Positions 2,965-56,563 of a stretch of DNA of 64,000 nt are shown piece after piece (position 1 is the stretch's first letter; each line of letters opens with the position of its first letter). The stretch is from the IMG/VR virus record IMGVR_UViG_3300010938_000009, positions 32,001 through 96,000 of that record, one strand, 5' to 3'. The stretch is from a virus. A model generated the notes under the pieces. That model had not been told where the DNA came from. It was given only the letters and a program-made list of their open reading frames with translations, and ran no database searches. Position numbers and translations under genes: made by a program.

Positions 2965-3039
2965 TGGTAGCGGTGGTAGGAATCGAACCTACTTTCTTCA
3001 GATTATGAGCCTGACGACTTACTACTTGTCCTCACCGCA
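2965..3039 (-). tRNA. tRNA-Met(CAT), initiator-like
   Basis: TGCGGTG/CACCGCT acceptor stem with U1-U72 mismatch, anticodon loop CT-CAT-AA, GGTTCGATTCC T-arm, encoded A-CCA end. Confidence 0.9.
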
Positions 3040-50780: not shown

Positions 50781-52382
50781 ATGCAAGTTCAATATAATAC
50801 AGAAGGTAAACCTTTAAGAATAAATGAACTCGACATAGAAGGTTTAGCTAAATGGTTATATGAAAATAAAGTTAGAACGACTCAAGGTAAATTATATCAA
50901 CCATTACATAAGGGACATTTAGAAGTTTTAAAAGATCCAGCTAGATTCAAAGTTTTAGCTTGCGGTAGAAGATGGGGGAAAACTTTATTAACTTCTTTAA
51001 TGGCTTTAGCTGTTCTGTTTCAAATGAACAGAAGAGTTTGGATTATTGGCCCAGATTATTCTTTGTGTGAAAAGGTTTTTAGAGAACTTTATAGCATTTT
51101 AGTATTACAATTGAAGATTATAGTTCCTGGAAAAAAAGGACGTGCTCGGAACCAAAAAGGGGATTATTACTTAGAAACTCCTTGGGGAAGCATATTAGAA
51201 GCTAAATCAATGGAGAATCCTGACAGTTTAGCAGGAGAAGCGAACGACCTAATTATTATAGATGAAGCAGCTCTTACAACTAATTTAGAAAATATATGGG
51301 TGCAAATGCTAAATCCGACGTTAATGGATAAAGAAGGTTCAGCAATTTTTATTTCTACACCACGAGGTAAAAATAATTTTTATAAACTATTTTTATTTGG
51401 TGAAAAAGGTAAACGACAAAGAGAGGGTAAACTTAAAATAACCATAGATCCAGAAACAGGCATTAATAACGATATGACTGAATGGAGTAGTTTTCAGAGA
51501 ACTAGTTACGATAACCCTTTGTTAGCAGCTACGCCAGAAAAATCTAAAAGTGAAATTGATGCTGCTTATAGACGCTCTATAATGTCTGGTAAAATAGTCA
51601 TGTTTAAACAAGAATACTTAGCAGATTTTGAATCAGTTTCTGACAGTTGTTTTCCAGGTTTTAACGTAGAAGCTACTGAAAAAATACAATATCCTAATGT
51701 AATAGATTATAATTGGCACCCTGATGAAGGCCCAATTTACTCAGCTTGCGATCATAACTTTGCTAAACCAGCAAGTACTATATTCGCTCAAGTAAATCAA
51801 TTTGGAGACGTAGTAATATTTGATGAATATTTTACACCACATACAACCTCCTACATGCAAGCCCAACAAATAGTAGACAAAGAAAGAGAACTTACAAGAA
51901 GAGCTATAAAAATTTGGGACGACGAAGCACAATTATTAAAAAATAGAAGACATATAAAATTTGAAGAAATAATAGCAGATATTTCAGGAGATCAAGTACA
52001 ACTACATGGTAGAGCAGCTTGGGATGATTTTGAAGCAGTTTTAGGTAGAAGACCAAAAGGTTTAGCTCAAAATAGAGAAACAGGTTGTAATATGATAAGA
52101 CTTTGGTTACAATTTCCAAAGTTTGATCAAAAAGGACAGCCAGTATTCGACAAAAACAACGAACAAGAAACTTACCCTAAATTATTTGTTTCTAGTAATT
52201 GTACTAATTTAATTTACGCTTTAAGTACTGCTAAGTTCAAAAAAGGAAACGGCGGCAACTTAAAAGAAGATTATGAAGAAACTCCAGAAGGTTACGAAGG
52301 TTTAATTGATGCTTTACGTTATTTAATAGTATACTTATTTCACAATAAGGGTAATTACGTAGAAGTTTACAAAGGATTTTAA
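50781..52382 (+). CDS. terL: Terminase large subunit
   Basis: CGRRWGKT Walker A, IIIDEAA Walker B, ISTPRG.N.FY, F.QEYLADF, C-terminal DALRY. Confidence 0.93.
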   Translation: MQVQYNTEGKPLRINELDIEGLAKWLYENKVRTTQGKLYQPLHKGHLEVLKDPARFKVLACGRRWGKTLLTSLMALAVLFQMNRRVWIIGPDYSLCEKVFRELYSILVLQLKIIVPGKKGRARNQKGDYYLETPWGSILEAKSMENPDSLAGEANDLIIIDEAALTTNLENIWVQMLNPTLMDKEGSAIFISTPRGKNNFYKLFLFGEKGKRQREGKLKITIDPETGINNDMTEWSSFQRTSYDNPLLAATPEKSKSEIDAAYRRSIMSGKIVMFKQEYLADFESVSDSCFPGFNVEATEKIQYPNVIDYNWHPDEGPIYSACDHNFAKPASTIFAQVNQFGDVVIFDEYFTPHTTSYMQAQQIVDKERELTRRAIKIWDDEAQLLKNRRHIKFEEIIADISGDQVQLHGRAAWDDFEAVLGRRPKGLAQNRETGCNMIRLWLQFPKFDQKGQPVFDKNNEQETYPKLFVSSNCTNLIYALSTAKFKKGNGGNLKEDYEETPEGYEGLIDALRYLIVYLFHNKGNYVEVYKGF

Positions 52383-52383
52383 C

Positions 52384-53466
52384 ATGAGTATAGTAAAAAA
52401 AGAAAGTAAGAAACTAAGACAAGCTACAGCTACTGGCGACGCTATATCTACTAGTTTATTAGACGCAGTGAATACTTCAGAGATTATAACATTATCTACT
52501 GTAGCTAGTAAGATAACTTTTCAGAGTTCAGGTACACTAGCATTTGATTATACTGTATCAGCTAACGGTATTAACTTTGTTGCTGGAGCATCTGTAGCTG
52601 CAAATACACTAGCATCGTATAACACACATAACGTAATAGCAGTAACTATTACAAGAACTGCAGGAGCTGGACGAGTATCAATATTAGCAGTATCGTAAAT
52701 GAAACAAGTTATTATAAGAAAAAATAGAAGATTTATTATAAACGAGGAACAACTAAAGCCTCAAGCTAACAAACCTGACATTTGTAATGCTCTTTATGCG
52801 GCTATTTATAGAGAATTTTTAGGAGCGAGTGAAAACCCTAAATACAAAGATTTAACGCCCATAGATAGATTAAACAAATTAAATGAGTTTGCCTTAGATT
52901 GGCTTAAAAAAAGAGGGTTAGAATAATGTCAAATCACAAATTAGAGATTAAATACAAAACTTCTAATAAAAAGCAAGGACAAAATGCTGACGGAAAGCAT
53001 AAAGCTTCCGATGGTAAAAAACGAGCACCTAGACAAGAAGATAATGGTATCGGATCAGCTTATGCAATTGCTGTAGGAGAAGCTTTAAATTTAGAAAAAG
53101 GTAGCAAACAAGGTTTTCTTGGAAAAGAAAAGAAAACTATTGACCCAAAACAGTTCGCAGGTAGTACATTAAAAAAGGAGAACAAATAAAATGGCAAAAG
53201 TAAAAGCAGAACACCAATTAAAACATAAAGGCATGAAAGCTCCAAAGCCTGATAGCGCACAATTAGGAGATGTTAAAGCAGCTCCAAAACATAAACCAAA
53301 AATGAATTACAAAGAACCAGCATTTAAACTTCAATCTGACGCTCAATCAATGGCTCCAGATCATAAGAAAAAATCTATGCCGCACGATTGTGCTCCAGAA
53401 GGAGTTTCTAGTGTTAATGGTGGAAATTCCTATCCAATGGAAAAGGATCATTCTTTAAAAAAATAA
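52384..53466 (+). CDS. Four small late proteins (52384-52698 virion-like; 52699-52926; 52926-53189 and 53191-53466 Lys-rich)
   Basis: ORF track; tight coupling. Confidence 0.55.
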
Positions 53467-53534
53467 CCTCATAATAAGATACACGATGGACAGTAGAGCT
53501 GTTCGACCTGTTCCTTGAGAGGAAAGGAGGAAAA

Positions 53535-56500
53535 TTGAGTTTTAACCTAGGCGTGTCTAATCATCCAACGAGTAGATTAGGCGGATTAAGTTCTGTAGGG
53601 ATTTATCTTTACGAAGATATTTACTATAGACAGTGGATCAGTGAGATCGCCTTGGCCTTTTATGAAGGTGAATATATCGGCCTTCGCTTTAAGTAATTAA
53701 AGAGTTATGATGCGACAAGACGAATTAAGATAAGTTCGTCGGTAACGAAAGTTACAAAAATAATATAAATAACCACAAAATGTTATCTGGTTAGACTTAG
53801 AGTAAGACAGTTTCGTAATCCTGAGAAAATTTAAAAACTGTTTACTGAGTCTCTAAAATGGGGTGAATTGCTGGAAACTCCTAAAACTCACATAGCTACA
53901 AAGTAAATCGAAAGATTAAGCTTGACATGCTAGAGAATATGTGAGATACTCCTTAAAAGGTGTAATGGATAATCAGCAGCTAAGCGTAGTAGGGTTTAAG
54001 TTACTGCGAAAGTTCAACGACTAGAAGGTGAGTCCCAACAATAAGTCCTTCCTGAGAGTGCCCGATCCTGACCGAGTAAAGTCGAAGGATAAGATATAGT
54101 CTACTCCTATTTGAAAAAAGAGGTATATGATTAACGTAAAAAAATTAAAAAGTTCCGAATTAGATTCCGCCATATATGGTATGATTCTAGGTGATGGATG
54201 TATACAAATGGCTAGTTCTGGAAAAGGAAATAGCAATTTAAAAATAGGACATTCAATAAAACAAGAAGAGTATTTAAAATGGAAACAAGAGATTGTAAAT
54301 CAAATTGGAACGGTAAAAACTAGATTTTGGTATTATCAAAAACAAAACGCTTGTTATATAGAAACCAACACTAGAAACTACTTTACTAAATTAGAAAAAA
54401 TATTTTATATTAACAGAAAAAAAACTATTAATAAAAAAATATTGAATAAATTAACAGATTTATCTTTAGCTATATGGTTTTTAGATAATGGTTATATGAG
54501 TTATAATAAATCTGGTTCTGTTTACGGAGAACTCTGTACAGATCAATTTAGTTTAGAAAAAGTACAATTAATAAAAGATTGGTTTAAAATTAAATTTAAT
54601 ATGGAAGTTGGTATTAGAACTTTACGATATTTAAGCGGCAAACAAAAAGATACTATAGCTTATAGAATAAAGTTTAACAAAGAAAACTGTATTAAATTAA
54701 CAGAAATAATTAAACCTTATGTTAATCAAGTGAGTTGTATGCACTATAAATTATACGAGAATAAAATTGCTTCTCAGGCAGTAGAGAAATCTTCTGTGCA
54801 AAAATCTGTTATTGAAGCAACAGATACTACCACTTAATCTTACTAAAGAGATTATAGATGAAACCTCTATACTATATAGAGAAGATCCTATATATCAAGT
54901 AGTAGATGATAAGGGTAAGATATTAAAAAAAGATCAAGAATTATGGGAGCAAATCCAAAAGGATTCTCGCTACTTGACCTTTATGGACAAACTTGATAGA
55001 TGGGTACGACTACTAGGTACCGTACTAGTTAAAGTTTCTTTTGTAGATCCGCAGACTGGACTACTAGTAGATAAAAATAAAGAAGGTACTGTACAACTGG
55101 ATATGCTACATGGCGGCGTATACGATATAAGACATGGAGCTTCTCCCTACTATATTACAGAATTACTTATAGGTTTTGGCACTAAATTTGGAGGATTCAG
55201 AGAAAGATCTGGAACTCAAATTATAGGCGGATCACTTACAGGTAAATTACCTGATCCTAGTAGTATGGGGCAAGCCGACATAAAAACACGACAACGAATT
55301 GATTCTCCAGGACAATTAGGTTCAGTTAATAGAATTTATTGGAGTGCTCACTCACATTACGTTGAGGACGAAGATAGTAAGTATTACGAAACTAAAAATC
55401 CTTATGGAATAATTCCTGCTGTGCCGTTTTTTAATCAAGACCCAGCTCACTATTACTTTTTACCAATTAATGAACCTCTTATTTACGCTAATCATGCGAC
55501 TAATATGAGGATTACAGATTTGAATCATATTGCTAAGTTTCAATCGTTTGGAGTACCTGTAGTAAGTGGTATCGAAAGACCTACTTCACTAAGACAAGGT
55601 AGACCTGTAGACGATTTTAACGTATTAAAAGGTGGTACAGCTCAATCTAGATTTGGTGGAATTAGTGGTTTTGGAGCTAACGGACAATTTAGAACCTTTG
55701 ACCAAGGTTTAGGAGTAACAAGAGATGGAAACGCTGATGCTAATGCATTAGGTTTTTCTATTGGACCTGATACTGCTATAGCTGTTGGAGAAAAAGGGGA
55801 TTTTAGATTTGAACACCCTTCTGCAGATATTACAGGCTTAATTAAGGTTATACATAGTATAACTGATATGGTTAGAATTAACCACGGATTAAGACCTAAA
55901 TATGAAAATACATTACCTTCATCAGGTTTTGCATTATTAATGGAGAAGATTGGTGTTATAGAAAATAATATTAGAAGAGGTAAACTCTTTAAAGAAAGAG
56001 AAGAACAACTTTTCAATGTTATTAAGAATTTGTGGAATGTACATCATAATAAATCAGGAAGTAAAAGGTTTTCTGAAAAAGCTAAGTTAATTATAACTTA
56101 CGTTAATCCTAAATTTCCAGTTGACCCTAAAACTGAAAAAGAAGATATTATGATGGAAAGTAAAATAGTAGAAACTGGAGACAGAGCTGCTATTAAAAGA
56201 ATGTATCCACACATAAAAGAACCAGAAATAGATAAATTAATTATACAAGCAAGAAAAGATAAAGAAGAAAGATCCTTATTTGAAGCTGAACTTCAAGCCA
56301 AGGTTACTGAGATTATAGGACCTAAAGAAGATCCTAAAAATCCTGGAGCTAAACATAAATATTTAAGAAAATCTAAAGAAGCAGAAAGCGACAAAGAAAC
56401 TTATATTTATGAAGACGAAGACGGAAAAGAAAAAGAAGTCAAAAGATTAGATAAGAGTAAGGAAAAACTAGGTAAGCCTAAGATCGATAATAAAGCAAAA

Positions 56501-56563
56501 CACGCTGAAGAAAGTTCTAAGCAACCTGGTAAAAATGGTGATCCAAGAAGAAAAGAGGAGTAA
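53535..56563 (+). CDS. Portal protein, predicted spliced: join(53535-53669, 53713-53725, 53783-53798, 53801-53825, 54815-56563), 645 aa
   Basis: AGGAGG SD plus TTG at 53535; joined frame reads ...LAFYEG-RQDEF-IWLDL-VRQFRNPE-KQQILPLNLTKEIIDETS..., NPYGIIP, SGFAL; lies between TerL and scaffold. Confidence 0.8.
53670..53712 (+). ncRNA. Core-less group I-type mini-intron 1 (43 nt)
   Basis: P1 GAAGGU/GCCUUC ending in U.G; P10 CGA/UCG; CUUUAA-GUAA-UUAAAG hairpin; ends in G. Confidence 0.7.
53726..53782 (+). ncRNA. Core-less group I-type mini-intron 2 (57 nt)
   Basis: P1 GACGAAU/GUUCGUC ending in U.G; P10 UUAUCU/AGAUAA; GUAAC-GAAA-GUUAC hairpin; ends in G. Confidence 0.75.
53826..54814 (+). mobile_element. 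Group I intron (IA-like core) carrying a LAGLIDADG ORF
   Basis: P AAUUGCUGGAAA 53866-77, Q AAUCAGCAGC 53971-80, R GUUCAACGACUA 54012-23, S AAGAUAUAGUC 54091-101; P7 GACUA/UAGUC; exact ends inferred. Confidence 0.88.
54127..54837 (+). CDS. Intron-encoded LAGLIDADG homing endonuclease or maturase
   Basis: IYGMILGDG, HS.KQ.EYL.WK, LAIWFLDNG, CTD.FS, M.YK. Confidence 0.88.
   Translation: MINVKKLKSSELDSAIYGMILGDGCIQMASSGKGNSNLKIGHSIKQEEYLKWKQEIVNQIGTVKTRFWYYQKQNACYIETNTRNYFTKLEKIFYINRKKTINKKILNKLTDLSLAIWFLDNGYMSYNKSGSVYGELCTDQFSLEKVQLIKDWFKIKFNMEVGIRTLRYLSGKQKDTIAYRIKFNKENCIKLTEIIKPYVNQVSCMHYKLYENKIASQAVEKSSVQKSVIEATDTTT

Follow-up and report, generated by a model that had tools for sequence, protein, structure and literature searches.

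The window analyzed here, a 64-kb stretch (64,000 nucleotides (nt)) of the 104,283-bp IMG/VR virus record IMGVR_UViG_3300010938_000009, contains a portal-like gene that is interrupted four times, by inserts of 43, 57, 2, and 989 nt, within a stretch of codons that is almost invariant in related phages. The 57-nt insert (mini-intron 2; positions 53726-53782 of the window) is probably a non-autonomous group I mini-intron, consisting of a P1–P2 module and a terminal G, that is spliced by the ribozyme of the neighboring 989-nt intron. The segment carries the guide pairings of a group I intron, its removal restores a Phe codon and the portal frame, analogous mini-introns with compensatory guide changes are found beside introns that bear a catalytic core, and a contig with the exact predicted junction exists in a wastewater library recorded as cDNA.

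Anatomy of mini-intron 2

The portal-like gene appears in the list of open reading frames (ORFs) as two ends of one gene, a TTG-start frame at 53535 and a 583-amino acid (aa) frame at 54812-56563. More than 300 portal homologs are found in metagenomes, mostly 610-650 aa in length and on contigs of up to ~117 kb, and the uninterrupted homologs read ALAFYEG RQDEF[VI]WLDL VRQFRNPEK QQILP.NLTKE across the region in question. The RQDEF[VI]WLDL motif, which contains the Phe codon cut by the 57-nt insert, is invariant across more than 100 of these uninterrupted homologs. In the window, the invariant stretch is all there, but in pieces (Table 1). Joining the five exons yields a stop-free 645-aa frame that matches the homolog P0002 along its entire length with 69% identity; in the spliced N-terminus, as many as 74 of the first 80 residues are identical to those of homologs.

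Mini-intron 2 was described in a first-pass annotation, made from the letters alone, as a 57-nt core-less mini-intron, and every structural element of that description is found base for base in the sequence. The final seven nucleotides of micro-exon 2 form the 5' strand of a 7-bp P1 (GACGAAU 53719-25 with GUUCGUC 53734-40), which ends in U53725.G53734, the wobble pair characteristic of group I 5' splice sites. P1 is followed contiguously on the guide by a 6-bp P10 (AGAUAA 53728-33 with UUAUCU 53783-88, the first six bases of micro-exon 3), so that guide 53728-40 is complementary to 13 consecutive nucleotides of the ligated junction through 12 Watson–Crick pairs and one G.U pair, and this sole wobble falls exactly at the junction. 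A GUAAC/GAAA/GUUAC hairpin (53742-55) comes after the guide, and the segment ends in AUG, with G53782 as its last base in the position of the terminal omega G. Removal of 53726-82 joins U to UU and creates the Phe codon that was claimed to keep the frame, giving RQDEFIWLDL, which matches the invariant motif of the homologs; when the insert is kept, the frame reads RQDELR-stop. The splice point can be placed in two registers 1 nt apart (U^UU or UU^U; here and below, the caret marks a splice or insertion point), of which U^UU is the only one with a terminal G and is also the one chosen by the guide. RNA folding recovers the P1 hairpin and the GAAA hairpin as the minimum-energy fold (z = -3.9; 0 of 200 shuffles as stable), and both hairpins persist when the whole of 53655-53860 is folded. 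A junction-spanning guide of at least 13 bp arises in 194 of 200,000 shuffles of mini-intron 2, and the corresponding counts for three other mini-introns are 1618, 1880, and 39 of 200,000.

The description as core-less also holds, as no match to the group I intron family RF00028 overlaps 53726-82, even at E<=1, and the catalytic core P3–P9 was not found there. The 57 nt contain just P1, one hairpin, and an A/U-rich tail, with no evident P7 or G-binding element. Without a core, mini-intron 2, as judged from its letters, would resemble a group I intron without qualifying as an autonomous one, and would need a core elsewhere on the transcript. A search with blastn-short of the mini-introns against 190 fetched loci gave A/T-rich noise only, with no full-length parent of mini-intron 2, and an exon-flank pattern search of IMG/VR for inserts at the same site gave two chance matches only. 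A 6-bp helix between the tail and exon 3 (UAACCA/UGGUUA, 53770-75 with 53788-93), which may be due to chance, would loop out the terminal G and the P10 strand.

Thirteen nucleotides upstream lies a second insert of the same design and of unrelated sequence, as had been pointed out, from which mini-intron 2 is separated by micro-exon 2 (53713-25). The P10 of this 43-nt mini-intron 1 is formed by UCG 53677-79 with CGA 53713-15, and a GUAA-capped hairpin and a terminal G are present. On the other side, micro-exon 3 serves two guides, its first six bases being the P10 strand of mini-intron 2 and 53793-98 being the P1 strand for the guide of the large intron.

Joined and insert-bearing contigs

Three small-share sequencing runs (X1-X3) were compared over 53450-54950; parts of this interval, including exon 5, had no cover and were left unused. 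No run listed as RNA contains the stretch, and exact joined and unjoined 22-27-mers have no match in IMG/VR. Run X2, from wastewater, has its library recorded as 'METAGENOMIC RNA-Seq cDNA' and contains a 257-nt contig (record 3; depth 8.9) that runs from 53492-53669 into CGACAAGACGAAU and then into 53783-53848 without the two bases at 53799. Mini-introns 1 and 2 and the AG insert, and nothing else, are absent from this contig, which contains the predicted junction GACGAAU^UUAUCUGG and extends over the first 23 nt of the large intron. Three substitutions (53564 T>C, 53567 A>G, and 53816 T>C) set the contig apart from the window, and the two are identical in micro-exons 2 and 3, where other phages vary synonymously. 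Run X1 comes from another study, of a rhizosphere, and is presumably DNA (annotated 'DNA?'). Its contigs 53459-53656 (53564C) and 53728-53879 (53816C) have single-nucleotide polymorphisms in common with the X2 contig, and the latter X1 contig keeps mini-intron 2, from its third base, together with AG.

The X2 contig probably derives from RNA, an assignment that is tentative, as is that of X1 to DNA. The simplest reading is that it represents a partly spliced transcript of the insert-bearing genotype, from which the mini-introns have been removed before the core-bearing intron. The contig could instead be DNA from a sister strain in which the three small inserts were never present or have been lost precisely; in the window, these inserts would then be unspliced relics in a broken portal gene. 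The annotation of X2, 'RNA? (probably DNA)', speaks for such a polymorphism, as do three relatives (L039, L028, and L058) that have the large intron without AG or mini-introns. This explanation is nevertheless unlikely. The virus genome is complete, with direct terminal repeats at its ends; all five portal exon pieces are intact and conserved; and the guides are intact and covary at homologous mini-introns. The X1 genotype shares two of the polymorphisms of the X2 contig yet retains mini-intron 2 and AG, and, given the identity of the contig and the window in micro-exons 2 and 3, three precise deletions would have to have occurred in a very close relative.

The neighboring group I intron and related loci

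The large intron matches RF00028 with 57.7 bits (cut-off 50), and its P3–P9 core, at ~53859-54123, is the sole group I core in the 104,283-bp genome and lies ~80 nt downstream of mini-intron 2. Across eight loci, compensatory changes are found at 36 of 67 predicted pairs of the core, and the P7 strands are invariant. The intron also contains an ORF for a LAGLIDADG endonuclease (54127-54837; PF03161, 8e-34). The stop codon of this ORF (54835-37) lies 20 nt into exon 5, so that the ORF is complete only in unspliced RNA.

Two guides belong to this intron. The 5' guide (53835-52), located just before P3, pairs with the exon codons for DLVRQF, which precede the 5' end of the intron by 15-30 nt, and it covaries with the exon in loci L038, L044, L058, and L196. 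In the window, AG (53799-800) is bulged between the P1 (AGACUU/GAGUCU, with U53798.G53847) and the P10 (AGUAA/UUACU) of this guide (53793-53813 with 53835-52). The analog of AG in L196 is the 6-nt AAAAUG (CUCGU^AAAAUG^ACGUCAA; L196:2166-2190), which puts a UGA in the portal frame and is bulged in the intron guide helix UUGAC-U-GCGAGAU, with U.G at position -1. The second guide, UUGCUUCUCAGG (54767-78), lies within the endonuclease ORF and is followed by a GAAA hairpin (54779-96). Across loci, the 3' guide comes downstream of the endonuclease ORF, at a distance of 26-39 nt from the 3' splice site, and a GNRA hairpin (GAAA except in L028, where it is GUAA) follows it. The complementarity of this guide to the exon 4/exon 5 junction extends over 12 nt in the window, 11 nt in L038, and 16 nt in L044 and L058, and guide and exon covary in L038, L044, and L058 (CCUGAG/CUCAGG in the window vs. 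CCAGAG/CUCUGG in L038). With its guide displaced to the 3' side, the core already operates on a P1/P10 module located at a distance from it, which makes it plausible that the same core also serves the mini-introns.

At position -1 of the 5' splice site of the large intron, the window and L038 have a G-C pair, L039 has A.C, and L028 and L196 have A-U; a U.G pair is found only in L044, L058, and L034. Pairs other than U.G are unusual for cleavage by a ribozyme alone, and they favor an alternative in which removal depends on protein, either a host or phage nuclease with an RNA ligase or a maturase-like LAGLIDADG factor, with the guides only aligning the exons. This alternative is quite unlikely, since U.G at -1 together with a terminal G, which is possible in every mini- or micro-insert, is a group I signature, and we know of no nuclease–ligase or maturase-like pathway of this kind for bacterial mRNA.

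The comparison covers 72 IMG/VR loci retrieved through the portal alignment and four metagenome loci retrieved through an alignment of the intron endonuclease, and 55 loci show normal spacing across the region that is interrupted in the window. Introns of the family of the window are inserted at the NPEK site (site 4) in L028, L038 (on the same contig as L195), L039/L040, L044, L058/L198, L196, and the window. Full-size introns occur at YEG^RQDEF in L007/L008, L020, and L031, and at another site in L030. A search for short ORFs revealed further interrupted N-termini (P0122, P0125, P0126, P0127, P0129, and P0121), one of which, P0125, has an in-frame 36-nt insert at site 0 and a break at the NPEK site. 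The 70-codon portal stretch is therefore an insertion hot spot with at least eight sites.

Mini-introns are present in four of the eight distinct loci with a core intron at site 4, and in none of ~60 others (Fisher ~1e-4, uncorrected for shared ancestry), the window carrying two of them. The mini-intron of L044 (35 nt; L044:3487-3521), at YEG^RQDEF, corresponds to the fused two ends of full introns of that site, and mini-intron 1 is homologous both to it and to the ends of the full introns in L007, L020, and L031. The P1 at this site 1 is GAGGGU/GCCCUC in L044, L020, and L031 (GCUCUC in L007) vs. GAAGGU/GCCUUC in the window, which constitutes a compensatory change. Two further mini-introns, both with a contiguous P10 and a terminal G, are inserted at WI^TE in L038 (36 nt; L038:2374-2409) and L196 (34 nt; L196:2080-2113). 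These two have a common guide (P1 AGUGGAU/GUCCACU with U.G; P10 UACAG/CUGUA) and divergent tails. The L044 mini-intron likewise has a P1 with U.G, a contiguous P10, and a terminal G.

The canonical order of elements in the family, as seen in L030, is the 5' splice site, the guide, a GNRA-capped P2, an A-rich joiner, and P3, and a GNRA-capped hairpin of this kind is found a median of 11 nt upstream of the P3/P4 motif GUGAAUUGCUGGAAA in 49 of the 122 introns that share this motif. Mini-intron 2 consists of the guide, a GAAA hairpin, an A-rich tail, and G, and mini-intron 1 of the guide, a GUAA hairpin, a tail, and G; both can therefore be read as P1–P2 domains minus the core, plus a 3' tail. A separate observation concerns one extra base between the QQIL and P.NLTKE codons (AUUCU^G^ACCC) in L058:3492-3506, L051:408-422, and L034:980-994, which represent two divergent lineages. 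A conserved GGGUAGGA beside a GAAA hairpin could pair across the junction at this extra base, with U-A instead of U.G.

The distribution of the inserts bears on the possibility that the 57 nt form an autonomous minimal ribozyme that self-splices without a core. Self-splicing has been claimed for degenerate group I introns of 56-81 nt in fungal small-subunit (SSU) ribosomal DNA (rDNA), and in vitro group I splicing has been reported for the PaSSU intron with only P1, P7, P10, and an intron-to-3'-exon helix (PMC3160393). The tail-to-3'-exon helix of mini-intron 2 described above could be a counterpart of the latter. An autonomous mini-intron 2 is very unlikely, as it has no evident P7 or G-binding element, the mini-introns occur only beside a core-bearing intron, and the 2-nt and 6-nt inserts, which cannot be autonomous, follow the same rules.

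Elements that ribosomes bypass, such as that of T4 gene 60, have matching take-off and landing codons around the gap, and the gap is in phase with the codons. Bypass of the 57 nt on an RNA that is never spliced was rejected as scarcely credible: a stop codon two codons into the insert and a hairpin after the exon end would suit it, but the insert splits the Phe codon (U^UU), no matching codon pair is present, and the joined form exists as nucleic acid. At the splice sites of archaeal bulge–helix–bulge introns, a 4-bp helix lies between two 3-nt bulges, and this class was also rejected, since the 5' splice site of mini-intron 2 ends a continuous 7-8-bp stem and its 3' site lies in a loop.

The portal clade is an uncultured one, known from environmental samples. 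Searching GenBank phages by tblastn with the portal gave zero matches and no cultured relative, and the exon at 54812-56563 has no Pfam or PHROG match, although PF05133 is precomputed on a few of its homologs. A scan for promoters and terminators near the 5' end of the junction contig found nothing.

Table 1. Features of the interrupted portal gene and of other parts of the window
Feature	Position	Strand	Details
Portal exon 1	53535-53669	+	TTG start to AFYEG, last base U53669; N-terminus aligns with uninterrupted homologs
Mini-intron 1, 43 nt	53670-53712	+	P1 GAAGGU 53664-69 / GCCUUC 53680-85, U.G pair
Micro-exon 2, 13 nt	53713-53725	+	CGACAAGACGAAU; RQDE and first base of the Phe codon
Mini-intron 2, 57 nt	53726-53782	+	P10 guide 53728-33, P1 guide 53734-40, GAAA hairpin 53742-55, A/U-rich tail 53756-81, G53782
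Micro-exon 3, 16 nt	53783-53798	+	UU AUC UGG UUA GAC UU
AG insert, 2 nt	53799-53800	+	Shifts the portal frame if kept (LDLE-stop)
Micro-exon 4, 25 nt	53801-53825	+	A GUA AGA CAG UUU CGU AAU CCU GAG = (L)VRQFRNPE
Large group I intron, 989 nt	53826-54814	+	RF00028 core and LAGLIDADG ORF, terminal G54814
Portal exon 5	54815-56563	+	Starts KQQILPLNLTKE, ends at stop codon
Large terminase, T4-type	50781-52382		
tRNA gene	2968-3039	-	RF00005, 57 bits

Proposed mechanism and relation to known systems

The proposal in the first-pass annotation of an excised intron that has no ribozyme of its own is supported, in part by inference, by the anatomy of the segment, by analogs with compensatory guides found only beside a core intron, and by the junction in the X2 contig together with the insert kept in X1. 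A complete and conserved core is present on the same transcript, and the mini-introns are absent from loci without a core. Several points weigh against excision by the neighboring ribozyme. The probability of the mini-intron 2 guide in the shuffles is, taken alone, a modest ~1e-3. No second mini-intron was found at exactly its site (site 2), either among the fetched loci or in the short-ORF search, and its P1 and P10 are thus without covariation of their own. Among the portal homologs, P0072 and P0120 are truncated, and the former, which starts MWLDL, may represent another interruption at site 2. In addition to the cautious annotation of X2, total-nucleic-acid wastewater libraries can carry phage DNA, and the joined form could be of this origin. 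The G-C pair at -1 of the large intron indicates that this intron family departs from some of the textbook rules and that its mechanism may be only partly understood. Finally, the role of the core as the agent of excision is a matter of inference.

In the mechanism that we propose as the most likely, the guide of mini-intron 2 would form P1 with exon 2, and the GAAA hairpin may aid the docking of the P1–P2 module on the folded core that the 989-nt intron supplies in cis, ~80 nt further along the pre-mRNA. Guanosine would then attack after U53725, after which G53782 would take its place in the G site while P10 aligns exon 3. The attack of the exon 3'-OH after G53782 would join GACGAAU to UUAUCUGG and restore the Phe codon. 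The core would also excise the 43-nt mini-intron and the 2-nt AG, and itself only afterward. A broader form of this scheme, for and against which the balance is about even, is that one core acts as a small spliceosome for its own pre-mRNA and docks four P1/P10 modules in succession, namely the two core-less mini-introns, the 2-nt 'intron' that forms a bulge within the helix of the intron's own guide, and the 3'-displaced guide, with the core being last to leave. It can be speculated that the remnants persist by disrupting the target sites of homing endonucleases at the hot spot.

Group I introns are textbook self-splicing RNAs, each of which is thought to carry its own catalyst, and searches of the literature found no account of phage group I mini-introns that lack a core. 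If the mechanism is correct, mini-intron 2 would be a natural intron that lacks a ribozyme and uses that of its neighbor, implying that substrate and enzyme can become separate parts in group I introns; a split of this kind is the step by which the spliceosome has been proposed to originate from group II introns. The lower size limit of introns would be reset, down to 2 nt, and phage gene callers would be missing essential genes broken by inserts of 2-60 nt.

Well-known phage group I introns include those of T4 td, nrdB, and sunY, and of Twort orf142. Like the self-splicing phage introns of RF00028, mini-intron 2 has a P1 with U.G and, on the same guide, a contiguous P10, as well as a terminal G and a P2-like hairpin capped by GNRA. 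It likewise interrupts a conserved part of a phage gene that is essential, next to a large intron that is itself a member of the family; unlike the self-splicing introns, it has no P3–P9 core or G-binding site. The fungal SSU rDNA introns are of similar size, keep P1 and P10, have lost most of the core, and contain an intron/3'-exon helix that may have a counterpart in mini-intron 2 (PMC3160393). However, those introns reside in eukaryotic rRNA genes and are said to have a P7, whereas mini-intron 2 is located in a phage mRNA, has no visible P7, and is of a kind always found with a full core in the same gene. Removal by a core acting in trans is chemically possible, as engineered group I spliceozymes excise introns from RNAs other than themselves (PMC4094466). 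As in the spliceozymes (PMC4094466, PMC4509937) and in the Azoarcus ribozyme with an external guide (PMC2709566), a foreign intron would be removed by a core whose substrate helices are separate from it. In contrast to these laboratory constructs, in which the guide is on the ribozyme, here the mini-intron itself contains the guide, and the core is part of the same natural transcript.

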